From: Nitrosopumilus sp.
GTDB taxonomy: Archaea; Thermoproteota; Nitrososphaeria; Nitrososphaerales; Nitrosopumilaceae
DNA length: 64,000 nt
Direction: 5' to 3'
Assembly (NCBI GenBank): GCA_965224195.1
Contig: OZ245040.1
Span: 736,001 to 800,000, forward strand
The position numbers and the translations under genes were made by a program. The notes beneath the pieces are model-generated. The model made no database searches, was not told where the DNA came from, and saw only the letters and a list, made by a program, of their open reading frames with translations. Positions 45,670 through 64,000 of the stretch are shown one piece after another. The stretch's first letter is position 1; every line of letters begins with the position of its first letter.

Positions 45670-46036
45670 TGTCTGAAGGGTCTGACGTGTCTGAAGGGTC
45701 TGACGTGTCTGAAGGGTCTGACGTGTCTGAAGGTTACCTTCAGACATTTTACTGATTTTTACTGATCGCTTTTGCGTCTGAAGGGTACCCTTCAGACGCT
45801 CTGGGGAGAGGGTGAAAAATATGTTGGTTCTAAGACTTGATACTCTACCTCCAAAAATATACCTAATTTTTGTATAATATACAAGTTAATCATACCACTA
45901 ATTACATGAATCAGACATTTTAGACATATGATCCTGACCAAAAAATAGACAATTTCAATTTTGCGTCTGAAGGGTCTGAAGGGTCTGAAGGTTACCTTCA
46001 GACATTTTACTGATCGCTTTTGCGTCTGAAGGTCTA
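45670..46036. repeat. iteron-like TCTGAAGG repeat cluster with palindromes
   Basis: 18-bp unit GTCTGAAGGGTCTGACGT in tandem, GTCTGAAGGTTACCTTCAGAC hairpins, a perfect 26-bp palindrome at 45774-45799, and a second block at 45963-46035. Confidence 0.85.
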
Positions 46037-47865: not shown

Positions 47866-49041
47866 ATGATGGGCAAAGTGTCAGTTGCAAAATTAATTAA
47901 AGAATTAAGCTGGACAGAAAAAGAACTGCCACAAAGAGAGAGAACAAAACACGTTCACAGTTTACACCAATATGTCGGTAAGTTTGTACCTCAGCTTGTA
48001 GATTATTTCCTACAACGTGACCTTAAAAATTCTAAATTAATCTGTGACCCATTCATGGGTTCCGGAACTACACTTGTAGAATCAAATGTCAAAGGGATTC
48101 CATCCATAGGGTTGGACATTGGCAAATTTAACGTAATGCTGTGCAATATAAAGACAAAGAGCTATGACGTTACAAGTTTGAAAAGAGAGACAAAATCAAT
48201 TCTTGAGGAAACATTACTCAATGCCTCAAAGACCAGTCTTGATAATTTTGTCTCAAGCAGACAAAAAAGAAAGCTAGGCATTACAGATTCAGAATATCTA
48301 AACGCCTGGTATCATGCAGAAGCGTTGCATCCATTACTTGTATTTAGGGACCTGATACCACAGCACAAATATCAAGATGTTCTAAAGATAATTTTGTCTC
48401 GTTCTGCACGTTCTTCAAGAATGATAGCTCATTATGAGACAGACTATCCAAAAAAACCACAAAAAGATGATTACTATTGTCTCAAACATGATAGAACTTG
48501 CCACCCAACCAAGAACTCTATGGCTTTTCTTAAAAGATACTGTAATGATGTTGTTAAGAGAATAAACCAATTTCAACAGATTAGAAATGACGTACACACA
48601 AAAGCCATACATGGAGATTCAAGCAAGTTTGACTTTACAGATTCCAAAATCAATGATGTTTTCACATCACCGCCATACATAGGACTCATTGATTACCACG
48701 ACCAACATAGATACGCCTATGAATTATTGGGTTTACAAGATAATAGTAATTCTGAGATAGGTAGAAGAAAGAATGGTTCTAGTAAATTGGCAATATCCAA
48801 CTATAAGAAAAGCATTACAAAAACTATCAAAAATATTACAGAATCATCATTTGATAGGAAAAATGGAGTGTTCATAATTGTGGTAAATGACAAACTAGAC
48901 CTTTATGATGAAATTGTATCAAATGCTGGAATGATAGTAAAAAAGAGACTGTGCAGAAATGTTAACCGCAGGTCCGGAAGAAGGGCAACAAGTTTTAATG
49001 AAAATATTCTGATTTGTAAATCAGATGGTTCTATCAGATAG
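47866..49041 (+). CDS. amino-DNA methyltransferase (alpha order, probably m4C)
   Basis: HQYVGKFVPQL, DPFMGSGTT (motif I) precedes TSPPY (motif IV). Confidence 0.88.
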   Translation: MMGKVSVAKLIKELSWTEKELPQRERTKHVHSLHQYVGKFVPQLVDYFLQRDLKNSKLICDPFMGSGTTLVESNVKGIPSIGLDIGKFNVMLCNIKTKSYDVTSLKRETKSILEETLLNASKTSLDNFVSSRQKRKLGITDSEYLNAWYHAEALHPLLVFRDLIPQHKYQDVLKIILSRSARSSRMIAHYETDYPKKPQKDDYYCLKHDRTCHPTKNSMAFLKRYCNDVVKRINQFQQIRNDVHTKAIHGDSSKFDFTDSKINDVFTSPPYIGLIDYHDQHRYAYELLGLQDNSNSEIGRRKNGSSKLAISNYKKSITKTIKNITESSFDRKNGVFIIVVNDKLDLYDEIVSNAGMIVKKRLCRNVNRRSGRRATSFNENILICKSDGSIR

Positions 49042-49319
49042 CGTAAAAAAAGAGACAGAAGAATATCTTTGTAAATGGGTTGAAAAACTCACAAAGAGAA
49101 AAATCATGAATATTTGATATATTTTTGGAATAATTTAGGAAACAAAAATTTGCCTACATCCCCGGTGAAAATTATGCCATTTAAAAAATTGAATGTTACA
49201 CCTTGCAAGAATTGTCTCAACTATTTTGTATCTTTAGATTGATCTTAGAAAATTAACTTGTTTTGATGAGTATAAAATAATCAAAAAAAAAACCTATAAG
49301 AGATAATCTTAGTCAAAAA

Positions 49320-50204
49320 TTGAACAATTTGTTAAAATCAACTCAAAGACTTGATGTAATTTATCGTAGTGACTGCTTAAACAAATTAAAAAAATTGGAT
49401 TCTAATTCTATAGATTTTATTATTACTTCTCCTCCGTATGCAGATAGCAGAAAGAAAACATACGAAGGCGCTTCTGCAGATAAATATGTGGACTGGTTTT
49501 TACCTATTTCAAAAGAACTTAAGCGTGTTTTAAAACCTAGAGGCTCTTTTATTTTAAATATCAAAGAAAGGGTTGTTGATTCTGAGCGTAGTACATATGT
49601 TCTAGAATTAATTCTAGAGATGCGAAAACAAGGATGGCTGTGGACTGAGGAATATCTTTGGCATAAAAAAAATTCTTTTCCTGGAAAATGGCCAAATAGA
49701 TTCCGAGATGGGTGGGAAAGATGCTTGCATTTTACAAAACAGAAAAAATTCAAAATGTATCAAAAATCAGTCATGGTGTCTAAGGGAAAATGGGCAGAGT
49801 CCAGACTCAAAAATCTTTCTGAGACTGATATGGAACGTGCTAAATCTCGCGTGATGAGCGGATTTAGTAAAAATGTATCCAATTGGTTGGATAGGGATCT
49901 GGCATACCCATCTAATGTCATTCATATGGCAACTGAATGTTCTAATGTAAGTCATAGTGCCGCATTTCCTGTATCTTTACCTGAATGGTTTATCAAATTA
50001 TTTACAAAAGATGAGGATGTTGTATTGGATCCTTTTATGGGGAGTGGCACTACTGCTGTAGCTGCAACAAAATTAAATCGTAATTATATTGGAATGGAAA
50101 AAAATACGTTATATCATAAATATGCAAATAAAAGAATTAGAATTTTTAAGAAAGAACTTGAAGCAAATTTAAAATCTAAAAATAAATTAAAAATTTCTAG
50201 ATAG
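49320..50204 (+). CDS. beta-class N4/N6 DNA methyltransferase
   Basis: TSPPY, HSAAFP, DPFMGSGTT. Confidence 0.92.
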   Translation: MNNLLKSTQRLDVIYRSDCLNKLKKLDSNSIDFIITSPPYADSRKKTYEGASADKYVDWFLPISKELKRVLKPRGSFILNIKERVVDSERSTYVLELILEMRKQGWLWTEEYLWHKKNSFPGKWPNRFRDGWERCLHFTKQKKFKMYQKSVMVSKGKWAESRLKNLSETDMERAKSRVMSGFSKNVSNWLDRDLAYPSNVIHMATECSNVSHSAAFPVSLPEWFIKLFTKDEDVVLDPFMGSGTTAVAATKLNRNYIGMEKNTLYHKYANKRIRIFKKELEANLKSKNKLKISR

Positions 50205-50235
50205 CTTTTTTAAAAATAACGCCAAAGCAATAGAT

Positions 50236-50472
50236 TTGCAAATGATTGCACCCCAAATATCATCTCTAATAGATGACTGGCATTCAAAAGGGAAAATCAT
50301 GCTATCAGGTCCATTTGATAGCGATGTATCGTCAATGGCAGTTTTTGAAGGGACTGAAGAGGAAGCACATGAGTTTTACAAGAAATATCAAGACATATGC
50401 TCAGATATTTTGACGTATGAGTTATACCAATGGGATGCATTACCTATTCTTTCAATTTTAAATAAAAATTGA
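50236..50472 (+). pseudogene. YciI-like protein, probably 5'-truncated
   Basis: GKIMLSGPFD, MAVFE, YELYQW; non-ATG start. Confidence 0.5.
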
Positions 50473-50815
50473 AATTTTTTTAAAAACAATTTAATTTGTA
50501 ATCCTGTTCTCATTCTATAGACTTGTAGTAGTAACATAGAAAAATGTGCACTGTTAAGTAATCATTGAATAAAATTATGGTAATGGCTCATGTCCTCTTT
50601 TATATCCTGAAAATTTACGATATTCGTAATCAGTCAGTGGTGTTTGACATCCACATTTACAAAATATTTTCATGATTTTGATAAATTGCACACATACAAA
50701 AAGTTTAGGAAACTAGGGTTCTGTGAAGTTATAGGCACCTGAAATATGGATCTTCTTCAAATTGAATTTTAGGCATGAAGTTTTTTATCAACTCAAATAG
50801 TAGTCATTAGCGTTT

Positions 50816-51373
50816 TTGTTTATGGGTAAAAAAGAGTTACAAGAAAGAGACATTTGGCAAGATAGAAGTGGTGTAAGAGGGGAAGTTGCAGAAGCTAAAT
50901 TTGAGATAGTTTTTCTAAGAGAATTTGAAAAATTAAATTATGATGTAAGAAAAAAACCAAAAGAACTTCAAGATATTTATTCAAAGGAACCAAAACATGG
51001 AGTAGTTATCGATTATGCAATAACCAATACAGACACCAAAAAAACACTATACGTGGAAATCAAAAGACAGGATGGCTATGTTCCGGGGGAAACTGAACCT
51101 AATGCAGGTAGAGGAAATGCACATGAAAGATCATGTAAGTATTTTACACCCGGATTACTGAAAATCATGAGAAAATTTGGAAATTTAGGCGATGATGTAC
51201 TTCCTTTTTGGGTTGTATATCAAGGTCGTATTGCACGTGATAAAAAACGAACTAACGAAATAACATATTGGTTTGATAATTATAAACCACATTTTTTCTT
51301 GTGGAAAAATCAATCAAATGCAAAACCACTAGTCAACCATTTTAACAATAATTTGAAATCCCTCTTAGATTAG
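50816..51373 (+). CDS. MunI-family type II restriction endonuclease
   Basis: EIKRQDG...AGRGNAHERSCK.FTPGLLK, LPFWVV..G.I.RD.KR..EIT.W as in R.MunI. Confidence 0.88.
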   Translation: MFMGKKELQERDIWQDRSGVRGEVAEAKFEIVFLREFEKLNYDVRKKPKELQDIYSKEPKHGVVIDYAITNTDTKKTLYVEIKRQDGYVPGETEPNAGRGNAHERSCKYFTPGLLKIMRKFGNLGDDVLPFWVVYQGRIARDKKRTNEITYWFDNYKPHFFLWKNQSNAKPLVNHFNNNLKSLLD

Positions 51374-52023
51374 GCATTATTCATTATTACATCTAATCCC
51401 CATGAAGCCCAACCTCTAGCTCTCTTTCGTGCAAATAGCTCTATTCTTTTTTGTTCAGGGAACATCTTCTCTATTCCTTGCATGACTTCTATTGGTTTTT
51501 CACTATGTCCTTTTCTTGGAGTTTTTACTAGCTGTTTTACATTCCTTGCCCCTCTTGGATTTGGTATTCTACCGTGTTTAAATAACAAACATAGTTCGCA
51601 ATTTGAGAGGGTGTATTTTCCGGGATTATGATTCATCTTATCCCATACAAAAGCCACTGTTCTATACTTAAAACCCCATGCCTTGCCTAATTCTATGGCT
51701 TGTGATAAGTGAGGGTTTGTAGTCCACATGAACAATAAACAATCATCAGCTACTATTCCATCTATGGGAATATCTGACATTTCACTAGTCTTCATAGTAG
51801 GATATTTGAAACTAGCAGTGCTAATGTAGAGGCTTTTTGATGTATCGTATTGTAATTTCTTATTATAATCCCAAGGTGGATCAGCATAGATTATATCAAA
51901 TTTCTTATTTGGTAATTTTGGGTATGCCATTTCATTTGATAATGGATTGTGTTTTGTTCGTCTCTTAACATCTTCGTTGTAGATTGAATACCCACTACGC
52001 TTTTTTGTTAATTGTTTACTCAT
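51370..52023 (-). CDS. MT-A70 family adenine methyltransferase (M.MunI-like)
   Basis: IYADPPW, LFMW, FVWDK, HSEKP, IELFAR. Confidence 0.9.
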   Translation of the reverse strand: MSKQLTKKRSGYSIYNEDVKRRTKHNPLSNEMAYPKLPNKKFDIIYADPPWDYNKKLQYDTSKSLYISTASFKYPTMKTSEMSDIPIDGIVADDCLLFMWTTNPHLSQAIELGKAWGFKYRTVAFVWDKMNHNPGKYTLSNCELCLLFKHGRIPNPRGARNVKQLVKTPRKGHSEKPIEVMQGIEKMFPEQKRIELFARKRARGWASWGLDVIMNNA

Positions 52024-52288: not shown

Positions 52289-53423
52289 ATGAATGCAAGA
52301 AAACAACGAGCTCAAATTATGATGGAAACTAAAGGTCATTGTTCACAGATTGACCAGAACTCCTTTAGAGTTAGATCTCAGTCAAATCCAAATAATTTCT
52401 ATATTGTATCAAAAACAGAAAACGGATTAAAATGTCAATGTAAGGATCATAATTGTAGGAAATCTGACTGCAAGCATATCAAGATAGTTTTAGAGATTAT
52501 CAAAAATAACAATTGTCGTAGAGACAATACATTTAGAATTATGGAACGCTCTAAACTAAAACTATGCAAATTCTGTGATTCAGGCAAAATTATCAAAAAA
52601 GGAATCAAGAAAAATAAATCAGGTAATCTTCAAAAATTCAAATGTAAAGATTGTAAAAGAGGATTCACTGCAAATTTTGGTTTTGAGAAAATGAGACATA
52701 AACCAGTTCTAATCACTAGAGCATTGCAGATGTATTATTCAGGAATGTCAGTTAGAGACATTGCAGACTGCTTTGAGCAAGAAGAAATAGAAATATCATA
52801 TAGGGCAGTTTACGACTGGGTTAAAAAAATACTCCAGAATGACACACAATTATCTAAAGGGGATTGTACCAAGGGTATCAGAAACATGGAGAACAGATGA
52901 AATTTTTATGAAAATTAGTGGTGAGCAGAAGCTACAATATTCAATGCTTGATCATGAGACCCGATTCATGATTACTCAATATATGGCAAACACAAAAGGC
53001 ACTGAAAACGTTACACCAATGTTTAGAGAAGCCATGATGATTACAGATAAGATACCAACAACATTAATTTCTGATGGTGCTCCTAATTTCCATAAGGCAT
53101 GGAAAGAGAATTACAAGGCAAAGAATTTTCTTTGGAAAGATACTGAACATATACGTCACATTCACATGAAGGGTGATAAAAATAACAACAGAATGGAGAG
53201 GTTAAACGGAACCATAAGAGACAGGGAAGTTTCATACAGAGGGATAAAAAAGATGAACAGTCCATTATTTGACGGATTCCAAATTTACTATAATTTCTCA
53301 AAAAAACACGGTGGAATTGGTAATAAGACACCAGCTGAGATGGCAAAGATAGAAGTAGACGGTGCTAACAAATGGAAGACCATAATTCAAAATGCCAGTC
53401 TCTACAGGGAAAATTCAATTTGA
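52289..53423 (+). pseudogene. IS6-family transposase (SWIM finger, Zn ribbon, HTH, DDE) split by an extra A in an A7 run
   Basis: CQCKD...CKHI, CKFC/CKDC, GMSVRDI, WRTDE, SDGA, NNRMERLN; one fewer A at 52823-29 restores VKKYSRM. Confidence 0.88.
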
Positions 53424-53601
53424 AGAAGATCCATATTTCAGGTGCCTATAACTTCACAGAACCTTGATTTTATCTTCCTTTTTATTTGCATGTGTTGTTA
53501 TATTTATGATCGTTACGCCTTATGATCATTATGTCCCATCAAAATCTGATGATTCTCTGACCCATTCTGAATAGCTTGAAGCTATTGATTTTAAACTATA
53601 A

Positions 53602-54117: not shown

Positions 54118-54370
54118 TGAACATTTATAATGATGTTAAGTTATAATGTTTTTTACAAATATGTTTCAAAAAAGAATACAATTAAACTATTTGACCTATA
54201 TTGCACATTGTCTCAAGATGCAGAATTAGAACATATGCTTCATCTCAAACATAGAATAAGGGGTAGTTTATTCAGTTTAAAAAAAAGTGGTAGAATTAAA
54301 CGAGTATCTGATGCAACATACAAAATTTTAGACTGAAATTCAATCTAAGCTCCCAAAGATGTTACAGAAT

Positions 54371-54606
54371 CCTTTAAAGCAAGATTGAAACATGCCGCCA
54401 TATGCAGGTCAATCATGCAAATATTCCGTATTGTTGTTACGGCCCCATTGAAGCAAAATATTGAAGCTAGAGCAGACAGGCAAGCAAGCAAACATGCATG
54501 CTCATAATTTCCTCACCTCCTGGTGAGGCCGCCCCATTAAAACAAAATAGAAGACGGAGCTTTTGCAAAAGAAAGCCAGTTTGAATCGAACTTTCATAGG
54601 ATAAAC
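54371..54606 (+). repeat. cassette A copy 1: array of four dissimilar CRISPR-repeat-like units
   Basis: Units end GATTGAAAC (54391), GGCCCCATTGAAGC (54454) and CCCCATTAAAAC (54543), plus GTTTGAATCGAACTTTCATAGGATAAAC (54579-54606); near-identical copy at 57507-57732. Confidence 0.7.
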
Positions 54607-54659
54607 AACTGCTGATCCCAAAAATTCAGTCAGATTTCAGGTGTGGCAAACAATATCCC

Positions 54660-57194
54660 ATGGCAACGAATCTTAAAATAGCAAGTTCCGAAACCTACCG
54701 TGACTTGGATTCTGATGCTCTTGAAGACATAGAGGAACTCATCAGGCTTGGCATGGGCGACACGCAAAGGCTCAATCATATGAAATCAATGCTCCAAAAG
54801 GGCAGGGTCCTGTACAATTCAGACAGAGCATACGTAGAGAAGCTGAAAAAGTTTCTGGAAGATGACAATGACAGCATCGATGACCAGCCACCAAAAGCAG
54901 GATTACAAGCTCCTGATACGCCATCGCCACCTGAAACAGACACCGTGCCACCATCAACCATTGAAACAGCTGCCAATAGTGCAAAAGACAACGACAAGAT
55001 CGTCCTCATGGTAAACCAATCACCCGGGTCAAGTGCTGCCTGGTATCTCTTGCCATTATTTTTTTCTATAATAGGCGGTGCCATATCTTACATGTGTATC
55101 AAAAGAGAGGATCCTACAAGGGCCCGCAGGACGCTCATACTTGGTGTCTGCCTGTTTGCAGTGCAAGCGTGCATGATTATAGGAATTTTCCTGATTGCCT
55201 ATGAGGACACAGGCGTACCGACAACTGACATGTCAGACAATCAGATAAGAAAGGATGCCGTGACCATCCCATACGATTCCCTGATGGATGAAAGCCACCT
55301 GTACGAGGGAAAGGCAGTATATTACAAGGGCAGGGTGCTGCAGGCATTTGACAATTTCTTTGGTTCGTATACAATGAGGATGAACATATTAAACAATGAC
55401 ACATTATTCGAGTCCGATAGCATTATGCTCAACTTTGAGCCAAGCACTGATGAGGAGAAACAGTGGGTTGAGAACATCAGGAGAAACCCAGACATATTTG
55501 GGTTAGACTCTCATGATGCTCAGATATGGGGAATATATCGCGGATTTATTGAATACGAGACCCTTTTCGGAGGTATCAATACAATACCTGAAGTTGATGT
55601 GCATATGCTGGAGATCAACATGCCGGATCCTAAAACTGAAGAGATAGCGAAAGACAGGATGCTTGTACTACCTGGAATTGATCCTGGTACTGATACTCCA
55701 GAACTTACTGTAACTGGAACACCTGCAGATAATTTCCCCGATGAACAACGTTCTCAATTTTGTGGTTCAAGTGATGCAAAGTCTACAGATTTTGTTCAAG
55801 AATTTTCAATTCCAACCTTGTGTACAAATCCTCTTGCAATTGTAACTGATTATGATGGAAACGTATGGTTTGCTGAAACTAATACTGGTAAAATTACTAA
55901 ATTTGATCCTGCTTCTGAAACATTCACTGAATATGAAAATTCATTGTGGCCTCCAGGTGGACGTTCAATGATTTGGGGAATGGATTATGCGCCCGATGGT
56001 TCTATATGGTTTACTGACGAATCCTATGATTCCATATGGAAATTCTCAACTATTGATGAGACCTATGATAGATTATCATATCCTTCTGAAGGAGATTCTT
56101 TACCTCAAAAACTTCTAGTTGATGGTTCTCAAATAATAATAAATGATTTTACTGGAAACAAACTCACATTTTTAGATCCTAATCAATCTGGTGAGGAAGT
56201 AAATTATCTTAGTATTCCATCCCCTACTGATGACTCTGTAACTGCAGACTTTGCAGTGGATGCAAACGATAATGTCTGGTACACTAATTGGTTATATCAG
56301 CAAGGAGGAGTTTTAGTAAAATTTGATCAAAATGATTATCTTAATTCTGTTGCAAATTCCGGAGAGCAATATCTTCCATTAATTGACTTTATCGAACTCT
56401 ATCGATTACCTATGACCCTTCTAACTCCTAACGGTATTACTGTGGCAGATGATGGTAATATTTGGATGGCTGATACAACATCTTCATCATTCTTTCATTT
56501 TGATCCGATAACTGAAAATTTTGTACAATATGTAACATCTGATCCTATATTGAGCACATATGGTAATCAGACAGGCGTTGTAAAAACTCCAATATCCAGA
56601 CCCTATTGGATTGAATCTGATGATCAAGGTAGAATTATTTTCAATGAACAAACTGCAAATAATATTTCTGTAATGGATCCAAAGTCTCAATCCCTTGTTG
56701 AATATCATGTTCCTTCAAAGAACCCCAACTGGGCTGATTGTGATCCTGGAACAGGCATGATGTTGGCTGATTGTGGTGTTGCTCAAATCTTTGATTTCAC
56801 TGTTGATGGTGAAAAAATCTGGTTTACTGAATGGGCAGAAAATAATATTGGGGTAGTTGATACATCTATTCCGTTACCTTTGGAAATACAACTAACATCA
56901 ACTTCTTTAACAACTACGACTGGAAATTCAAAGCCAATTGACTTTGTAGTGTCATCTTTATCTCAAAAAGACCTACTTGATGTTTCATTAATTTTATCTT
57001 CAACACATGATTTTTTAAATATTGGATTAGTTGATTCACCTGAAACATTCCAACTTGATTTTGATGCCCCTCGTCCGATCTCTCTTATCATTAATACTAC
57101 TGAAGATGCAATTCCTGGTACATACAAAGTTCTACTTGGTGCACAATTATCTGATGTTGCAATTAGCAAATATGTAACAGTGACAATAGAGTGA
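54660..57194 (+). CDS. chimeric protein: accessory membrane domain fused to a Vgb-lyase-like beta-propeller
   Basis: GC-richer N-terminal third with TM segments; AT-rich remainder with DGNVWFAE, DGSIWFT and GNIWMAD blades. Confidence 0.8.
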   Translation: MATNLKIASSETYRDLDSDALEDIEELIRLGMGDTQRLNHMKSMLQKGRVLYNSDRAYVEKLKKFLEDDNDSIDDQPPKAGLQAPDTPSPPETDTVPPSTIETAANSAKDNDKIVLMVNQSPGSSAAWYLLPLFFSIIGGAISYMCIKREDPTRARRTLILGVCLFAVQACMIIGIFLIAYEDTGVPTTDMSDNQIRKDAVTIPYDSLMDESHLYEGKAVYYKGRVLQAFDNFFGSYTMRMNILNNDTLFESDSIMLNFEPSTDEEKQWVENIRRNPDIFGLDSHDAQIWGIYRGFIEYETLFGGINTIPEVDVHMLEINMPDPKTEEIAKDRMLVLPGIDPGTDTPELTVTGTPADNFPDEQRSQFCGSSDAKSTDFVQEFSIPTLCTNPLAIVTDYDGNVWFAETNTGKITKFDPASETFTEYENSLWPPGGRSMIWGMDYAPDGSIWFTDESYDSIWKFSTIDETYDRLSYPSEGDSLPQKLLVDGSQIIINDFTGNKLTFLDPNQSGEEVNYLSIPSPTDDSVTADFAVDANDNVWYTNWLYQQGGVLVKFDQNDYLNSVANSGEQYLPLIDFIELYRLPMTLLTPNGITVADDGNIWMADTTSSSFFHFDPITENFVQYVTSDPILSTYGNQTGVVKTPISRPYWIESDDQGRIIFNEQTANNISVMDPKSQSLVEYHVPSKNPNWADCDPGTGMMLADCGVAQIFDFTVDGEKIWFTEWAENNIGVVDTSIPLPLEIQLTSTSLTTTTGNSKPIDFVVSSLSQKDLLDVSLILSSTHDFLNIGLVDSPETFQLDFDAPRPISLIINTTEDAIPGTYKVLLGAQLSDVAISKYVTVTIE

Positions 57195-57436
57195 TACCTG
57201 ACTTAGATTCTCAAATTGGGATTTCAGTTTACAATACTAAATTCCCTGGTATAGGGGGTAAAATTAGAATTGAACCTGAAGATTTCCAAGTTAGTGAATT
57301 AATTTCTGAAAAATCTAAAAAATCAATTAATGATCAACATGGATATGCTGTGTATAAATTAAAAAAGAAAAAAATTGACACCAATCATGCACTATCTGGG
57401 ATTTTTAGACAAAAAGGTATCGATTCAAAATTCTAG
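57191..57436 (+). pseudogene. truD: tRNA pseudouridine(13) synthase, 3'-truncated
   Basis: GIGGKIR..PEDFQVSE, KLKKK.IDT..A; only 81 aa before the IS-like end. Confidence 0.8.
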
Positions 57437-57506
57437 TCCATGCAAGGAAAATTCAATTTGAAGAAGATCCGTATCTTCATGTTATCCCTCGACGATTACG
57501 CAGACC

Positions 57507-57732
57507 CCTTTAAAGCAAGATTGAAACATGCCGCCATATGCAGGTCAATCATGCAAATATTTCGTATTGTTGTTACGGCCCCATTGAAGTAAAATATTGA
57601 AGCTAGAGCAGACAGGCAAGCAAGCAAACATGCATGCTCATAATTTCCTCACCTCCTGGTGAGGCCCCATTAAAACAAAATAGAAGACGGAGCTTTTGCA
57701 AAAGAAAGCCAGTTTGAATCGAACTTTCATAG
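57507..57732 (+). repeat. cassette A copy 2 (CRISPR-repeat-like array)
   Basis: Direct repeat of 54371-54599 with two substitutions and a 3-bp deletion; identity stops inside the last repeat unit. Confidence 0.85.
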
Positions 57733-57849
57733 AAGAGATTATAAGATTTTATGAATGTTAAAAAAGAAGAAGGCTCGGGAAATGATTCAGATCATTTTTT
57801 AAAATGAGGAGAATCAAAAGTCACGGCTCTCATCATCGCCTTTTATTTT

Positions 57850-57960
57850 TTATGCGTTGAAATAATGCTTGCACTTTGTGCATTGTAGCGGCCTTCCCAG
57901 TTCTTTTCTTGTGGCCATTTCATACTTGCATTTTTCACATTTTACTATTCTTATGCCCAT
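57850..57960 (-). CDS. 36-aa Zn-ribbon protein
   Basis: MGIRIVKCEKCKYEMATRKELGRPLQCTKCKHYFNA. Confidence 0.55.
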   Translation of the reverse strand: MGIRIVKCEKCKYEMATRKELGRPLQCTKCKHYFNA

Positions 57961-57983
57961 ATGATTCATTATTCAGCCCCATA

Positions 57984-58044
57984 TTTATTATTATACACGT
58001 GTAAAATAACAACACTTTTATTATTATACCCGTGTAAAATAACA
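57984..58044. promoter_or_regulatory. tandem 28-bp repeat with TACACGTGTA palindrome in divergent promoter
   Basis: TTTATTATTATAC(A/C)CGTGTAAAATAACA at 57984-58011 and 58017-58044. Confidence 0.7.
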
Positions 58045-58733
58045 TGAATCAAATACAAATTCAGCAGGAAAAAATAGTTTGCCACGATGAGAATGATTTT
58101 CGATATTACTCATTTGGTGATCAAGTATATGCATCAGCTACCACCTTGCTTGATGCTATGCAGGACAAGTCCTGGATGCAATATGTGAATCTGTCGCAAG
58201 AAGCATTAAATGACAGACGAAACAATGCGGCAAAAATTGGAACAGCAGTACATCAGGCTCTCTATGAAAAACTTTCAGGACTAAATGTGACAAAGCTGGG
58301 CCTGGTCGCATCAGCACACGTGTCACAGATTTCAGAACATCTCAATAAAATATCCGATGTTCGGGGACTGGAAAAAATTATGAAGTCTGACACCCTCAAG
58401 GTGGCCGGAACTGCAGATGTCATTGCAGCATATGATGGCGTCTCATCCGTCATTGATTTTAAGACGACACGAAAGCCTCGCTACGGCAAACGACGGGACG
58501 TGTGGTATCTGCAGGCTGCAATGTATGCCTTTATGCATTATGAGGAGACAAATTTTATTGCAAGTCAAATCGTCATCATAGAGTCATGTGAGGACGGAAA
58601 GTGCCGCATACACAAGGTAAAGTTTGCAGACTATGCAGATGAGATGCTTGAGACAATCCAAATGTTTTATTTGCCTGAATCAACTGACAACTCGCCAACA
58701 AAATATCTAGAGTTTTTGAGGAGGATAAACTAA
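58044..58733 (+). CDS. Cas4/RecB-like PD-(D/E)XK exonuclease (viral type)
   Basis: SATTLL, GTAVH, AGTADVI, VIDFKT, QAAMYA; lacks the four-Cys Fe-S staple of canonical Cas4. Confidence 0.82.
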   Translation: MNQIQIQQEKIVCHDENDFRYYSFGDQVYASATTLLDAMQDKSWMQYVNLSQEALNDRRNNAAKIGTAVHQALYEKLSGLNVTKLGLVASAHVSQISEHLNKISDVRGLEKIMKSDTLKVAGTADVIAAYDGVSSVIDFKTTRKPRYGKRRDVWYLQAAMYAFMHYEETNFIASQIVIIESCEDGKCRIHKVKFADYADEMLETIQMFYLPESTDNSPTKYLEFLRRIN

Positions 58734-59125
58734 TGTCTGTCATATCCATGGCCTCAAGGTTTGACAGCACCTGCAAGGTCTGCAGTGCACAAATCAGAGC
58801 CGGTGATGCCATATACAAAGTAAATGATCACTGGTGCAAAGACCAGAGCTGTGGCAAGTCTGACAACCAGGTTCACATGGAGAAGAGACGCATTGATCTT
58901 GAGAATAAAACTCCGCCTGGCGACTTGGATTCTGAGACGTGCAGTGTCATTGATGCAAATGCCGTGCTCTTGTACAAAATTAATCAGAGGGTCTTGCATG
59001 CCCTCAAGAAATATGACGAGGCCCCAAACCCTGCAATGGTTGGGCAGTTTACAAAAATCATATATGACAAGCTAGGGCCGTCATCCTCTTCTTCCTCTTC
59101 CTCTTCTTCCTCCTCCTCCTCCTGA
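58733..59125 (+). CDS. Zn-finger protein with poly-Ser tail
   Basis: SRFDSTCKVC..I..GD.I...HWC...C; TAATG overlap with the nuclease. Confidence 0.65.
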   Translation: MSVISMASRFDSTCKVCSAQIRAGDAIYKVNDHWCKDQSCGKSDNQVHMEKRRIDLENKTPPGDLDSETCSVIDANAVLLYKINQRVLHALKKYDEAPNPAMVGQFTKIIYDKLGPSSSSSSSSSSSSSS

Positions 59126-59254
59126 CAGGACCTTATGCCAAATTCTGCTGAGCATTTTGTAAATGCCTGGCATGAGATGCATCTGCAAGAATAGCGTGTG
59201 GCCGCGTCCAACGTTTTATTGTGGGGGGGCGTGTAACGGACTGAGCGTTCACTC

Positions 59255-59423
59255 ACTTGTCATTTGAAAGACTTTTATCTATTTTTTAGTTTGAGACATG
59301 TGTGGATGCACCACGTTTGAATCGAACCTTTATGGGATTAAAAAATATTAAGCATGTGTACACAGTGCATCCACTGCCTTCTTCACCCTACCTTTATGAT
59401 GTTCATACACCTTCGATTGAAGG
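59255..59423 (+). repeat. cassette B copy 1: promoter plus stem-enclosed solitary CRISPR-repeat-like unit
   Basis: GAAAGACTTTTATC (BRE/TATA-like); GTGGATGCAC...GTGCATCCAC inverted repeat around GTTTGAATCGAACCTTTATGGGATTAAAAA (59315-59344). Confidence 0.75.
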
Positions 59424-59538
59424 ATTTCCAAAATGCCTCAAAAACTCCCGATTACTTGACATGAAGAAAATTTTGATCTCATCTCCGGACTGCCTGACAG
59501 AACATAAATAAGTAAGGCATGCCAGTGTTGTTCAATAT

Positions 59539-60378
59539 ATGAAAAAGACAATAATCTTTGCAATAATATTTACAATAATAGCTGGGATCTCAGTTTTGGT
59601 ATTGGGATCCTTTGAAACATCTCATGTAGATACCATAGAGATGACGGGTGTGGATGCCATAGAGATGACAGATGCAGAAAAGATGTGGCTTGAGACAAGA
59701 CAAACCATAAGGGTGGCATATGATCCTGCCTGGTATCCGTTTGAGTACATGGACAAAGAGTCCGGCAAGATAGGGGGACTTTCAGGCAAGTACTTTGCAG
59801 AGATAGAATCATCTACAGGAGCAGACCTTGTTACAATAGAGATATCTGACTGGGCAGATGCATTAGAGTCAGTTAAAGACGGCAGGGCAGACATGTTGCT
59901 CATGGCAGCTGACACTGAGCAGAGAAGGGAGTTTTTGGGATTTACAGAACCGCACAGCAGAATATCCGTGGACATGATCACAGTTGGAACTCAGACACTT
60001 GACGTAAAAGATCTGGCAGAGCTCAGAGTTGCCACCGTAAGGGATTATGCAGTAGAGTCATGGCTTGATCAGAACAGGCCAGAGGTAATGTATGCATCAT
60101 TTGAAAATGCCGCTGCTGCACTAGATGCATTAGAGGCAAAGAGCATGGATGTCTTTCTTGAAAATGAGCACGTGGCATCAATTACAGCCAAAAAGGCAGG
60201 CATAAGCGGAGGAGTGTTTAATGCAGGCCCGTCAGGATACGAGTATGTTCTGTCCATAGGCTTTGCAAAAGAGTCCGGTGAGCTTGGCACCATACTGCAA
60301 AAGGCCATTGATGCAATTCCGCAAGATCAAAAAGCACAGATGCTCAAAGACGTACTGGCAGAGAACGACGGCATCTGA
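59539..60378 (+). CDS. family-3 extracellular solute-binding protein (BvgS/EvgS-type sensor domain)
   Basis: Signal anchor, EKMWL, DPAWYPFEY, GRADML, RREFLGFTEP, LQKAIDAI. Confidence 0.85.
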   Translation: MKKTIIFAIIFTIIAGISVLVLGSFETSHVDTIEMTGVDAIEMTDAEKMWLETRQTIRVAYDPAWYPFEYMDKESGKIGGLSGKYFAEIESSTGADLVTIEISDWADALESVKDGRADMLLMAADTEQRREFLGFTEPHSRISVDMITVGTQTLDVKDLAELRVATVRDYAVESWLDQNRPEVMYASFENAAAALDALEAKSMDVFLENEHVASITAKKAGISGGVFNAGPSGYEYVLSIGFAKESGELGTILQKAIDAIPQDQKAQMLKDVLAENDGI

Positions 60379-60463
60379 GCGCAGAGACAACTACTGCAGA
60401 GATTTGTATGAAAGGCAGCTTGTTGCAGGTTTGATGCCCGCACACACATACAGCTGACAAACT

Positions 60464-60637
60464 ACTTGTCCATTTTCAAAAGACTTTTATCTATTTTTTA
60501 GTTTGAGACATGTGTGGATGCACCACGTTTGAATCGAACTATATTATAGGATTAAAAAACATCAAGCATCTGTACACAGTGCATCCACTGCCTTCTTCAC
60601 CTTACCTTTATGATGTTCATACACCTTCGATTGAAGG
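60464..60637 (+). repeat. cassette B copy 2
   Basis: Direct repeat of 59255-59423; repeat variant GTTTGAATCGAACTATATTATAGGATTAAAAA at 60527-60558. Confidence 0.8.
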
Positions 60638-60771
60638 CTTTTAAAATTGATCATTTATTTTAACCAATTCTCAATCTTGATAATATTTAAAAAAATCATA
60701 ATTTACACAATATTGATTTGTATGGAAATTATAGAATAAACTCTTTTTAACTTAATCCATATTGCTCTAGT

Positions 60772-61645
60772 ATGCATTATCCAGATTTGTTTCAGTCAGG
60801 TCAAATAGATCTAGAAAATTCAGAAAAACAATTTGAAGAAGAAGAATACATGCTGTCAGCATTTTTAGCACAACAAGCACCTAGAAAAACATGTTAAGAC
60901 ATATCTATTAAAAAATGATATTTTTGATAACATCAAAAAGTTGGGACATTTACCCATATCTGCAATGATCAATAGACTCATGGATCATTATGAAGAAACA
61001 ACCAATAAACCAGGTGGATTATACAGTGAAAGTTCCATGAAACTTTTTGAGCATATCTCAGAATATTTGTTAAAACTGGAGAGAGAAGACAGTCTAAAAA
61101 TCATCACATGGAAAAAATCACTTGGAATTCCTTTGACTAAGGATGAATCAAATAAAGAACAAGGATCATCTGTTAAATTTGATCAAATTGCTTCTGAATT
61201 AGAAACATCCATGCCAGATTTAGCTAGTCAACTTAAAAATCAAGCACAACTTGATCAACTGAACCAAGGTGATACATCACAATTAGATGATAAAGTACAG
61301 TCACTCATAAAATACTTAAACAAAACTTATGATGTACTTGCAAAAAAATCTACATTCACATGTGAAGATATCGAACACATAATTCATGATATAGGGTATG
61401 GTTCTGGAAAAAATTCGTTAGCAGAAATTGACACAAACAAAATTAAAGAATTCATAAAAATTTTCAAATCTCTACAATGGATGAATGAAATAATGAATTC
61501 ATATCCACATCAAACATTAGCAAGATATCCTTTTAAAATTGATGGTAAAACAAATCATGATTGGTATATCGAATACAAAGATAATCTTAAAGAATTAATC
61601 ACTAAAATAAAAACTACATGTGAAGATATACGTAAAACAGAATAA
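60772..61645 (+). pseudogene. HEPN-domain protein, frameshifted near 60880
   Basis: DLENSE...SAFLAQQA, then a shift to LEKHVKTYLL...LGH, and C-terminal ARYP; typical HEPN layout. Confidence 0.7.
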
Positions 61646-62294
61646 TTTTAAAAAAATAAACCTGTAATTGTAAGGCATACAACCAAAGAATTTTTAAAAC
61701 CATATGACCAAAAGGCAAAGCATATGGGATGGTCACTATCAGGGATAAAAACAATACAAATGCAACGCTGCATATCATAGCGTCTGATACGTTAGCAAAC
61801 ATATGCAACCGCATCTGAATCTGCTGCTGCATGTGCCTTTTATGAAAACCATTTCTGTCTGATGCGCAAAAGTCATGCCCCAGTACATTGCACAGACGTC
61901 CATCCAAAATAGTTAAATCACGCATACGGATCATCCCAAGACATGATGTGTGATATATGCCAAAAGGAGATAGGCGGGGAAGCACTGCAATTTTACATCC
62001 ACCTTACTAACAAGAAGGATGGCATGCATAATCTGCCAAAACAAGAAGTAAAAAAGATTATGAAGCGCAAGTTTCCCAATGATCCATTCACTAAAAACTT
62101 ATGACTGCAGTACGTAAAACAGTCTGGAGTTGTACTTTCTGCTCCACATTATGAATGCACTATATTGGACAAGCTTGATGCAAAGATTGAAAGAGAATTT
62201 TCATTATCTTATGTTGGCGACAAGTACAAACAGACTGCAGGCGGGCTCTGCTCAAGCCATTTGATATCAGAAAAGTGCCAAGACATGCAGCAGA

Positions 62295-62412
62295 GAAGCA
62301 ATGTCATCTATCTATTCTGCCCCCCCGCATTAGATGCCAGATCATGGACTGCCGGTATAATTTTTTTTGGAAGCAATGTCATCTATCTATTCTGCCCCCC
62401 CGCATTAGATGC
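62295..62412. repeat. 43-bp direct repeat around a 32-bp spacer
   Basis: GAAGCAATGTCATCTATCTATTCTGCCCCCCCGCATTAGATGC at 62295-62337 and 62370-62412. Confidence 0.9.
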
Positions 62413-62693
62413 TTTTGATTGCATTAGACCATGGACCATATGGATTGTGCCCTCGCCGTCAAGCAAGCTGCAAAACCCGGAGATACTTGATGCAATGAAA
62501 CTGGAGGAAGCAAAGGCAATGAGCTATTTGCAGCATACAGTACGCGCAGACATGTCGCGCAAATGATATCCCGTATTTTTTGAATGTTATGTTATCTGAT
62601 ACTTTGGTCAAAACTAGGCCGGATTTTCAACTGATGGTAAATTCGGGTGGACAGAGTGGTTCAGTTAGGGTGATGGTAAAATTATTGGCATGA

Positions 62694-63143
62694 TCATTTT
62701 TTATCATCATCTAATAATTTTTTCAAACCATAGCCTGCTATGACTGATAATACCCCTACAATGGCAAGTCCAAATGCATGTGTTGGATTATCTGGTTTTT
62801 TGATTTTTCTGTCCAAGCATGTGTTTGGTATTGGATTTATAATATCATATTCAATTTTTGCTTTGCGTAAAACTTTTTCTGTTTCTTGATGTGCAGGATA
62901 ACTATGCTCTTGATTTAGATGTGCTGCAGGATATGCAGGTGGCGGTTCCATTTCTGATTCAATATTGCCATCAGGCATTACTTTGATATGATGTTGAAGT
63001 TTATCTTCAACTCTTAATGCGTAGCCATAAACCTGTCCGTGATTTTCTTGAAATCCATCTTTAAATCCTAAATCCAAAAGAATATCTTTAAACTCTTGAA
63101 TACTTTTAATAGAAAGGCATTTGCAATGATGTGGATCTTCCAT
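62694..63143 (-). CDS. hypothetical protein with C-terminal TM anchor
   Basis: 149-aa ORF; partial second copy at 16699-16866. Confidence 0.7.
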   Translation of the reverse strand: MEDPHHCKCLSIKSIQEFKDILLDLGFKDGFQENHGQVYGYALRVEDKLQHHIKVMPDGNIESEMEPPPAYPAAHLNQEHSYPAHQETEKVLRKAKIEYDIINPIPNTCLDRKIKKPDNPTHAFGLAIVGVLSVIAGYGLKKLLDDDKK

Positions 63144-63824
63144 TAAACTGAATTAAATTCAGAGTTAATAAAACTGTTCACGTTTAAAAAAAATTCAAGA
63201 TAATAATTTCATCCAGCTACAAATGAGTGAAATCTTGATGACTTCTAGAAATTTTGCGGTGATGTCCTCAACTACAGGCATGCCAGGATTTTCAGAATGC
63301 ATCTGGCGTGCTGTAACACAATCATCAACAGCAAACCTGAACCGGTCTAAAAAACAACATATAGTGAGATTCCTGTAATCTGAAAAACTATCCGGATACG
63401 CCAGAGATTGACATTTGGAATACTGCATGTTCATAACAGATGCAACAGCACCTGCAATCTCAAAGTCTTTGCCACCAACAGATGCAAAAATAGCAGCAGA
63501 TACAGTCTCGTAAATATATGCCGTATAATTTTGAAACTCTGCACCGCATGCAGAAACGCATTACCAAGTCATTTATTTTTTTATTATGAATGTCATTGCA
63601 ATGCGGCATTTATTTGCAAACCCGTCACAGTTCAATTGTGACAGTCTGCTGTTTCATATGCGCTTATGCCTTGCCCTGGATTGGGCAGCATATGCTCCAG
63701 TGTAAAATACTGAACGCTTGGACTGTTGTTCCAGTCCACCTTTCAAGAATTTAAGACAAGCCCCGACAATCTGGCAGAACCCAAGAATAGGAACTATTAT
63801 TTACTGTAAAAATTAGTGTTTGAT

Positions 63825-64000
63825 GTGAACTGCCCTTATTTTTTTATCCTTGGCATAATTACATTGGCTCTAGTCGGCGGAGTCTCATCTGTGGCATATG
63901 CTGACAATGCTGATGCTGCCGGCGACATCCTAGTTGCAGACTCGGGCAACCACCGCATCCAGGTGTTCAATCCTGACCATTCCTTCAAGTTCCAGTTTGG
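63825..64000 (+). CDS. secreted NHL-repeat protein (partial, runs off window)
   Basis: Signal peptide then GDILVADSGNHRIQVFNPDHSFKFQF, a canonical NHL repeat. Confidence 0.75.
   Translation, partial: MNCPYFFILGIITLALVGGVSSVAYADNADAAGDILVADSGNHRIQVFNPDHSFKFQF

Follow-up and report, generated by a model that had tools for sequence, protein, structure and literature searches.

A duplicated unit with a solitary type I-B CRISPR repeat between complementary arms in a mosaic island of Nitrosopumilus sp.: a candidate decoy RNA

[quoted passage not shown] The question is raised by a duplicated unit in the genome of the ammonia-oxidising archaeon Nitrosopumilus sp. (GenBank assembly GCA_965224195.1; 2.07 Mb, 33.6% GC; G000 in our numbering), which lies in a 64,000-nt stretch of contig OZ245040.1 (C1), positions 736,001 to 800,000 (G000:C1:736001-800000), here called the window. 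Coordinates are window positions unless they are preceded by C1 or by another genome. A preliminary description of the window had reported that a unit of about 170 bp is duplicated on both sides of a cargo gene, and that it consists of a box, an arm, a repeat, the complementary arm and a tail, in this order. Both statements were borne out. The unit of about 175 bp is present as two direct copies, L (59262-59435) and R (60474-60649), which share 94.3% identity over 159 nt in a BLAST alignment; no third copy was found in a search of the whole genome. The 1,028 bp separating L and R contain the gene of the membrane-anchored solute-binding protein. All the elements were located in both copies, as follows.

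59262-59435, + strand: unit L, the whole duplicated element, a direct repeat of R and one of only two copies in the genome
59266-59279, + strand: putative box of unit L, GAAAGACTTTTATC, resembling the B recognition element (BRE) and TATA element, assigned by its likeness to a tRNA-gene motif rather than by mapping
59302-59311, + strand: 5' stem arm of unit L, GTGGATGCAC, a perfect complement of 59365-59374, paired in the minimum-free-energy fold
59315-59344, + strand: degenerate type I-B repeat of unit L, GTTTGAATCGAACCTTTATGGGATTAAAAA, 30 nt, matching the host repeat at 25 of 30 positions
59365-59374, + strand: 3' stem arm of unit L, GTGCATCCAC, assigned by complementarity, minimum-free-energy fold and shuffles
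59375-59423, + strand: conserved 3' tail of unit L with two small hairpins (TATGA..TCATA and CCTTC..GAAGG), ending ATTGAAGG, defined by L/R alignment
60474-60649, + strand: unit R, the whole duplicated element, a direct repeat of L
60478-60491, + strand: putative BRE/TATA-like box of unit R, the same as in L
60514-60523, + strand: 5' stem arm of unit R, assigned by minimum-free-energy fold and shuffles
60527-60558, + strand: degenerate type I-B repeat of unit R, GTTTGAATCGAACTATATTATAGGATTAAAAA, 32 nt, the host repeat with a 2-nt insertion
60579-60588, + strand: 3' stem arm of unit R, assigned by minimum-free-energy fold
60589-60637, + strand: conserved 3' tail of unit R, followed by CTTTTAAAA, defined by L/R alignment

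In each copy, the box GAAAGACTTTTATC is followed by 22 nt, the arm GTGGATGCAC, the trinucleotide CAC, the repeat (30 nt in L and 32 nt in R, beginning GTTTGAATCGAAC and finishing GGATTAAAAA), a further 20-22 nt, the arm GTGCATCCAC, and a 49-nt tail whose end, CGATTGAAGG, is reached at 59423 in L and 60637 in R. The differences between the copies are unevenly distributed. The first 61 nt, spanning the promoter, the 5' arm and the 5' part of the repeat, are identical (59267-59327 and 60479-60539), and the 49-nt tails differ at a single position. Eight of the nine differing columns fall within 31 columns, from the loop of the repeat to 12 nt past it (permutation p ~2e-4). The unit is non-coding, because the 2-nt indel inside the repeat breaks every reading frame that L and R could share; the sole open reading frame (ORF) over L (59302-59511) is absent from R owing to this indel, and a coding reading was rejected. 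A miniature transposon was likewise rejected for the 73-bp element reaching from arm to arm, no target-site duplication being seen by eye, either at the unit or at a similar locus in another genome (G131, described below). The cassette-like layout also raised the possibility of an integron attC site; no integrase was seen in a protein-family scan of the window. A search against Rfam gave no match at the unit.

The origin of the repeat can be traced within the same genome. Its first 13 nt, GTTTGAATCGAAC, occur exactly four times in the window (54579, 57712, 59315, and 60527), twice in the unit and twice in a neighbouring element termed cassette A, in agreement with the preliminary description, which had counted four occurrences of a repeat common to the two. 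Genome-wide there are 74 exact occurrences: 69 in the repeats of an array, the four in the window, and one in a further copy of cassette A. This distribution is not due to chance. The array (C1:942019-946529) has 69 repeats with the consensus GTTTGAATCGAACTATTATAGGATTGAAAT and belongs to a type I-B locus with cas3-cas5-cas7-cas8-cas6 on one side and cas4-cas1 on the other (cas8 assigned by size; cas6 at C1:940,994-941,743), a set of CRISPR-associated (cas) genes that looks complete. Comparison by eye showed that the L repeat is identical to the host repeat at 25 of 30 positions and that the R repeat is the host repeat with the 2-nt insertion and two changes in the handle. Both retain the first 13 nt exactly, and both carry an altered 8-nt 3' handle, ATTAAAAA in place of ATTGAAAT. 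With the exception of the G of the handle, L, R, and cassette A retain every G and C position of the repeat. Repeats of the host family contain a small internal stem (C13-T14-A15 / T19-A20-G21), which is kept in the arrays of relatives though the loop varies; the arrays compared include that of an unpublished genome (G206, with a repeat variant and 11 spacers), on which no conclusion rests. L preserves this mini-stem through a double change (T14C and A20G), and the insertion in R extends it to 4 bp (CTAT/ATAG). A search of the window with GTTTGAATCGAAC found no second I-B repeat inside the unit. The comparison with the host type I-B repeat, which the preliminary description had put forward as a check, thus identified the repeat of the unit as a degenerate copy of the array repeat, from which it is evidently derived. 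The unit is intergenic; the I-B locus is 146 kb away, and a type I-G locus about 80 kb away.

The genome carries three type I systems in all, with 292 repeats in total, which is an unusually heavy CRISPR load for the family. The type I-G locus (Cas4g/Cas1g, Csb2, Cas3g, and Cas7g) has a 91-repeat array (C1:707150-713760), and a second I-B-like locus has a 132-repeat array (C1:1457180-1466783).

A candidate promoter stands in front of each repeat. Upstream of the 41 tRNA genes of the genome, an AAAGA sequence recurs together with a (C)TTTTAT or TTTAAAT box, at a distance of about 30-38 nt from the mature 5' end, for example aaaagaTTTTAT at tRNA-Glu and agaaaCTTTTAAT at tRNA-Asp. The box of the unit, GAAAGACTTTTATC, resembles those of the tRNA-Glu, tRNA-Asp, and tRNA-Lys genes and ends about 22-23 nt before the 5' arm GTGGATGCAC and 36 nt before the repeat. 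We infer that GAAAGACTTTTATC is a candidate archaeal promoter. With this spacing from box to arm, transcription is predicted to begin near the first base of the 5' arm. At the other end, the tail contains the 5-bp hairpin CCTTC/GAAGG, immediately after which come CTTTT in R and ATTTCC in L; a terminator scan did not flag this 3' hairpin.

The two arms can form a 10-bp stem that is contained in the minimum-free-energy fold of both L and R. In order to judge how unusual such an enclosing stem (hereafter the clamp) is, we measured the longest perfect stem having one arm before the repeat and the other after it, with 500 shuffles of the flanks per locus. A stem of at least 10 bp arose in none of the 500 shuffles for L and in 4 of 500 for R. 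Among 19,805 random genome positions, an enclosing stem of at least 10 bp was found at 0.97% and one of 12 bp at 0.08%. Perfect 10-bp inverted repeats whose loops measure 20-100 nt number 34 in the window, compared with 12.4 in shuffled sequence. The stem is unusual, yet not extraordinary.

We tentatively propose that the unit may be a small non-coding RNA gene, residing on mobile, foreign-looking DNA, whose product acts as a decoy for the I-B Cas6; this is a possibility that we rank first without regarding it as probable. The archaeal BRE/TATA box would start transcription at about 59300-59302 in L and 60512-60514 in R, at the first bases of the 5' arm. This arm would pair with the 10-nt arm located 20-22 nt past the repeat, and a single host I-B repeat would thereby be held in a loop of about 53 nt. 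Cas6 enzymes that process the unstructured repeats of archaea grip the 5' part of the repeat and cleave 8 nt from its 3' end. The unit's repeat has kept two parts of the host repeat, the 5' part of 13 nt and the mini-stem of 3-4 bp, and its 8-nt 3' handle is spoiled. The host I-B Cas6 would accordingly be expected to bind the RNA and perhaps to cut it at about 59336/59337. No usable guide would be produced, and the RNA would act as a competitive decoy, a mode of action that has been shown for RacrIF1 in bacteria.

This proposal is placed first because in its anatomy the unit matches the solitary repeat unit (SRU), and it is from SRUs that RNA anti-CRISPRs (Racrs) were defined (Camara-Wilpert et al. 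2023, PMC10651486). In that paper, the promoter lies directly upstream of an SRU, cas genes are absent from its vicinity, the part that binds Cas6 is essential, and the handle is dispensable. The present unit resembles this in that a lone repeat of host type stands in intergenic DNA, with a promoter-like box before it and no cas genes near it, and in that its host carries the cognate subtype. Specifically, we found a single repeat close to a known CRISPR repeat with no other adjacent to it (the ATTGAAGG end of the tail is possibly a partial I-G repeat), a predicted promoter within 250 bp upstream, and the complete-looking I-B cas set together with its 69-repeat array. The carrier is GC-atypical, multi-copy DNA with scars of IS6 elements and an exonuclease of virus type; it showed no hallmark gene and no match to phage records. 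The architecture that the preliminary description had likened to a solitary-repeat RNA anti-CRISPR therefore holds for the host-derived solitary repeat, the spacing of the box, and the non-coding character. For conservation there was no such support, the whole unit being found in none of 400 other genomes of the family.

We looked for relatives of the repeat beyond this genome. The I-B 13-mer is present in 31 of the 400 family genomes, chiefly as chance singletons; when 20 of the single-copy occurrences were retrieved, 17 were fortuitous and three were true full repeats (G315, G394, and G371). A search for the repeat with an ATTAAAA handle in 185,579 species genomes gave one locus, a solitary repeat in the metagenome-assembled genome (MAG) TH5896 (contig JAATVP010000236.1, 1049-1077). 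Together with G131, five independent loci with a solitary repeat or a one-spacer array were found outside the Nitrosopumilus genome; four of them lie at the following positions.

G131, contig C14, about 1430-1570
G394, contig C40
G371, C1:1123248
G315, contig C101

In G131, a different perfect clamp of 12 bp encloses an unrelated copy of the repeat (0 of 500 shuffles; background 0.08%), its arms being the end of the spacer of that locus and a site 27 nt past the repeat. The MAG has a long imperfect stem around the repeat, of which 7 bp are perfect (142/500 shuffles; fold z-score -1.9), and G315 has a 7-bp enclosing stem (128/500 shuffles); no enclosing stem was found in G394 or G371. G131 and G394 are hybrid one-spacer arrays in the order hairpin-type repeat, 36-37-nt spacer, I-B repeat, and in G371 a terminal repeat decays at its 3' end. 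Leaving out the unit that prompted the comparison, the clamp recurs in one of five loci at the 0.08% level (rough p 0.004), and it may be a recurring feature, though not a universal one.

A number of results weigh against the decoy proposal. A search for RNA runs containing any of 54300-64000 returned none. The whole unit was found in none of the 400 family genomes, where the repeat part alone matched real arrays. Scans of viral contigs returned no stretch with the repeat pattern, with the conserved spacer-like core, or with two spacers of cassette A, and a comparison of 57480-62600 with phage records gave no match. Neither this locus nor the best-preserved sister locus showed a virus or plasmid hallmark gene (integrase, capsid, or replication). 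When 68 and 90 host spacers were compared with the genome, only short partial matches appeared, and none targets the island, which thus gives no sign of needing counter-defence; the same comparison with 177 spacers from the arrays of relatives likewise gave short partial matches only. The partial spacer matches near 1.457-1.466 Mb lie in array 3 itself. Three to four of the five other solitary-repeat loci lack a significant clamp. The fold predicted by the preliminary description was recovered in part: the stem is in both minimum-free-energy folds, but the fold z-scores against shuffles are modest (L, -0.73; R, -1.97). Since the arms of L and R are identical, these near-identical copies yield no covariation, and the genomes and viral sets searched hold no whole-unit homologue with which the stem could be given a true covariation test. 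The rules by which Cas6 would recognise the I-B repeat are inferred from other archaea. The G-to-A change in the handle is also the first change expected under AT-biased neutral decay. Finally, the I-B Cas6 of this genome, used as a single query, matched none of the four genomes G371, G315, G394 (87% complete), and G131; the positive control, G141, was matched at 6.6e-56. Such elements can therefore persist in genomes without a detectable partner.

The neighbouring cassette A bears on the alternatives, and its copies are as follows.

54365-54609, + strand: cassette A copy 1, a hybrid mini-array with an I-B-like repeat last
57501-57732, + strand: cassette A copy 2
C1:1512865-1513087 and C1:1626100-1626320: the other cassette A copies

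Cassette A consists of a TATA-like box, I-G-like repeats with 35-nt spacers, and a final I-B-like repeat with a decayed handle, in this order. One of its I-G-like repeats contains an alternative, fully compensated 7-bp stem (CCTCACC/GGTGAGG replacing CCGTAAC/GTTACGG). The G-to-A change of the handle is common to cassette A and the unit, and the end of the unit tail, ATTGAAGG, equals the end of the first I-G-like repeat in cassette copy A4. Three cassette A copies lie just upstream of an exonuclease/zinc-finger module. Cassette A was absent from the 400 other family genomes, and two of its spacers had no target in viral contigs. A broader idea, which we consider speculative and unlikely, is that clamped solitary repeats form a distinct class in ammonia-oxidising archaea and their mobile elements, that the clamp holds both products of Cas6 cleavage so that the RNA would trap Cas6 rather than only compete for it, and that such units would be deployed with hybrid I-G/I-B mini-arrays as an RNA-level counter-defence against several co-resident type I systems.

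The unit could instead be a relic, that is, the remnant of a collapsed or truncated array or mini-array (promoter or leader, one repeat, and trailer) that was copied by mosaic rearrangements, its stem being fortuitous or an inverted repeat at the DNA level. We judge this rather unlikely, but it is a serious rival. It would account for the decay of the repeat handle, in which AT-biased decay has struck the sole G, and for the confinement of the unit to one genome (0/400). The region is pieced together from duplicated host DNA, IS6 ends, and multi-copy modules, and perfect 10-bp inverted repeats are common in the window (34). Solitary and one-spacer copies persist in genomes without a detectable I-B Cas6 (0/4 matched), and the terminal repeats of G371 and of the host array, the latter being GGATCAGTAC with its 5' part intact, likewise decay at the 3' end. 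However, a relic would hardly be expected to combine a promoter box that matches well and is correctly spaced, 61 nt of perfect conservation at the 5' end beside a variable centre, and a retained 5' part of the repeat with a mini-stem that includes one compensatory pair. Random positions seldom have such a clamp (0.97%), and one of another sequence recurs in G131 (0.08% class). The preliminary description had named an ordinary decayed leader plus first repeat as the outcome that would overturn its view; the leader of the unit proved to be unrelated to that of the real I-B array, from which it is not derived, and the relic explanation keeps the weight given to it above. Quite improbable in our view is a one-spacer hybrid mini-array, in which the I-B-like repeat, a spacer-like segment of 46-49 nt, and a strongly degenerate I-G-like repeat would yield a guide similar to a CRISPR RNA (crRNA), directed against a competing element or repressing a gene in the manner of Cracr or CreA. 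The processed RNA would begin with AUUAAAAA. The end of the tail, ATTGAAGG, which is preceded by a small hairpin, is identical to the I-G handle ATTGAAGC at 7 of 8 positions and is shared with cassette copy A4, and hybrid arrays are found in the neighbourhood as well as in G131 and G394. crRNA-like RNAs and arrays borne by mobile genetic elements have been described in a preprint (bioRxiv 10.1101/2024.10.29.618823). Nevertheless, the I-G likeness is limited to about 8 nt, the spacer would be longer (46-49 nt) than the 32-39 nt of the host arrays, and the I-B handle heading the guide is mutated. No protospacer was found in the genome, viral contigs, or phage records; there is no seed match in the three cas loci, where no host CreA or CreR to be mimicked was found either; and the 12 nt proximal to the protospacer-adjacent motif (PAM) are the part that varies most between L and R.

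A slightly more doubtful alternative is that the unit serves as a portable promoter or 5' leader, or merely as homology for recombination, with a repeat that is either incidental or a switch, sensitive to Cas6, within the leader. The distance from the end of unit L to the ATG of the solute-binding protein gene is 116 nt, no strong terminator was flagged after the unit in the terminator scan, contigs link the unit to differing downstream DNA, and the duplication flanks the cargo as recombination at the unit would leave it. On the other hand, unit R stands about 300 nt from the next ORF, which is of different composition, the cargo copy at 922 kb is without a unit, and the precise retention of a CRISPR repeat would be left unexplained.

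How does the unit compare with systems already known? Beyond the likeness described above, it differs from SRUs and Racrs in several respects: the host is an ammonia-oxidising archaeon, and its type I-B repeat has essentially no structure; a mosaic island present in multiple copies, and not a defined virus or plasmid, is the carrier; no recognisable anti-CRISPR (acr) gene stands beside the unit; and the repeat sits in a 10-bp clamp of its flanks, a feature unmentioned for SRUs in the available part of the Racr paper (PMC10651486). With CreA/CreR and Cracr, as portrayed in the portion of the preprint seen (bioRxiv 10.1101/2024.10.29.618823), it shares a degenerate repeat followed by a spacer-like segment, a minimal CRISPR-like unit. 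Unlike these, it lies outside the cas locus, with no partial target in cas promoters and no adjacent toxin candidate identified, and its seed region differs between L and R. The 10-mer seeds (offsets 0-3) had no match in the intergenic DNA of the three cas loci, and a CreA/CreR assignment was rejected; the single seed match in the I-B region is inside cas1, at offset 3. The CreA-like regulatory RNA that the preliminary description had offered as a second option thus found no support, the unit being outside the cas loci and these loci containing neither a CreA/CreR-like degenerate repeat nor a seed match. A Cracr, by definition, agrees with a host CreA/CreR spacer at 9 or more PAM-proximal bases; this assignment was set aside as well, with no host CreA/CreR-like repeat found in the cas loci.

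Virus-borne mini-arrays resemble the unit, according to the extracts of two papers (Medvedeva et al. 2019, PMC6858448; PMC11656645), as fragments of arrays with host-type repeats on mobile genetic elements, a description that cassette A fits better than the unit does. In those extracts, the mini-arrays have repeats identical to those of the host and spacers against related viruses, whereas in the unit a single degenerate repeat is present and no spacer match was found, and cassette A mixes the repeats of two subtypes. The assignment of the unit as a virus-borne mini-CRISPR array (at least two host-identical repeats and 1-2 matching spacers) was rejected on the same two counts. Arrays with type I-B-type repeats that match host arrays have been found on integrated mobile elements of thaumarchaea (Krupovic et al. 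2019, PMC6563490); these are full arrays of 69-96 spacers with identical repeats, in contrast to the single degenerate repeat with a promoter-like box of its own found here. The degenerate terminal repeat of an ordinary array likewise has an intact 5' part and a decayed 3' part, as in GGATCAGTAC, but in the unit a promoter-like box stands directly upstream of the repeat, neither repeats nor spacers precede it, and its two flanks can pair.

Solitary repeats, Racrs, viral mini-arrays, crRNA-like arrays, and full I-B arrays on thaumarchaeal elements are thus all in print. A narrow literature search, which provides a thin basis and had the supplementary SRU tables of the Racr paper outside it, found no description of a solitary repeat clamped by its flanks; in the same search, on the same thin basis, no mini-array mixing the repeats of two subtypes was described for ammonia-oxidising archaea. 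RNA anti-CRISPRs have so far been shown to work in bacteria only, and the archaeal solitary repeats are catalogue entries. The unit would offer a concrete candidate for experimental test in the globally important ammonia-oxidising archaea, in a host with three type I systems. The clamp could explain how a decoy acts on a Cas6 that reads unstructured repeats, and the presence of repeats of two subtypes in cassette A suggests that one transcript of a mobile element may address several host systems. Even as a mere relic, the unit would document the scattering of CRISPR fragments by IS6-type and recombinational shuffling.

The surroundings of the unit include the following features.

58044-58733, + strand: upstream neighbour, virus-type PD-(D/E)XK exonuclease
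58733-59125, + strand: upstream neighbour, 130-aa zinc-finger protein
59424-59490, + strand: remnant of the end of an IS6-family element at the left edge of the cargo segment, with the same sequence after an IS6-like transposase at C1:922080
59539-60378, + strand: cargo gene for the membrane-anchored solute-binding protein (SBP_bac_3; Pfam PF00497, E 1.9e-16)

These features lie in a variable island that begins at about 41 kb and contains restriction-modification genes, IS1595 and IS6 elements, and ORFs of no known function. From 54.3 kb, stretches with about 45% GC alternate with others of about 30%, and the GC-rich pieces are multi-copy in the genome; the mobile-looking pieces have 44-47% GC, compared with 33.6% for the genome. 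A second version of the cargo segment (59429-60479), 90.5% identical, lies at C1:922080-923105; it is without the unit and directly follows an IS6-like transposase fragment; the sequence 59424-59490 is assigned as an IS6-end remnant because it follows this fragment there. The exonuclease belongs to phrog_298 (E 1e-32), with 68 relatives in viral contigs at 30-38% identity, and a homologue at about 35% identity is found in 149 of the 400 family genomes, including the unpublished G260, on which no conclusion rests. The exonuclease/zinc-finger module (58042-59076) has four full and three partial copies in the genome. Three of the four full copies are preceded by cassette A, and none of the five other module copies examined has the unit downstream. 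Among 29 family loci with an exonuclease homologue there were no repeat matches, and 69 exonuclease/zinc-finger loci (68 in viral contigs and one in a metagenome) contained no I-B repeat, the sole hits being 13-mers with 2 mismatches in coding-like DNA. A metagenome scan with the zinc-finger protein found one distant locus (37% identity over 41 residues).

Metagenome contigs, whose kind is not on record and which possibly include the source sample of the genome, revealed variants of the locus. The end of the unit is joined to other DNA in X1 (59425 linked to 61646) and X2 (59423 linked to 61647). Since the contigs diverge exactly after 59423/59425, the boundary of the module is the end of the unit. 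In the low-depth contig X4, a single unit is present without the cargo, 59266 being joined to 60479 with 61 nt shared. The duplication would most simply be a by-product of homologous recombination or of IS6-type rearrangement between molecules bearing the unit, for example through a single crossover inserting a circle of unit and cargo, and the duplication around the solute-binding protein gene would stand outside the proposed mechanism proper. The summed contig depth over 58015-59217 and 61624-64000 was roughly at least 10 times that of the neighbouring low-GC parts, an excess that many copies, or many carriers in the community, could explain.

Other parts of the island are composite as well. 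The sequence C1:873163-874934 recurs, at 96.7% identity, as the copied segment 55659-57429, at the end of which is a truncated truD (an 81-codon fragment, at 57191-57436). An 844-aa ORF (54660-57194) has a GC-rich N-terminal part (about 54660-55650) fused in frame to a low-GC beta-propeller resembling Vgb lyase. The copied segment has the look of host DNA taken up into the mosaic. An IS6-family element at 52289-53436 has its transposase split over two overlapping ORFs, and copies or remnants of the IS6 right end are found at module boundaries (57423-57482 and 59424-59490) and at several other sites in the genome. A restriction-modification cluster at 47866-52023 comprises two N6/N4 methylases, a MunI-type endonuclease, and an MT-A70 methylase, with IS1595 fragments adjoining. 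Beyond the window, C1:800001-816000 is a 16-kb stretch of 45-50% GC in which no ORF of more than about 195 codons was found, perhaps non-coding, degraded, or repetitive DNA that borders the island. Intergenic DNA of the island also contains perfect tandem repeats at 45670-45733 and 45965-45991, with units of 18 bp (TGTCTGAAGGGTCTGACG, 3.6 copies) and 9 bp (GTCTGAAGG). A perfect 43-bp direct repeat (62295-62337 and 62370-62412, spaced 75 bp) lies inside an ORF (62165-62566), and relatives of this repeat are present near C1:1056490-1056918.

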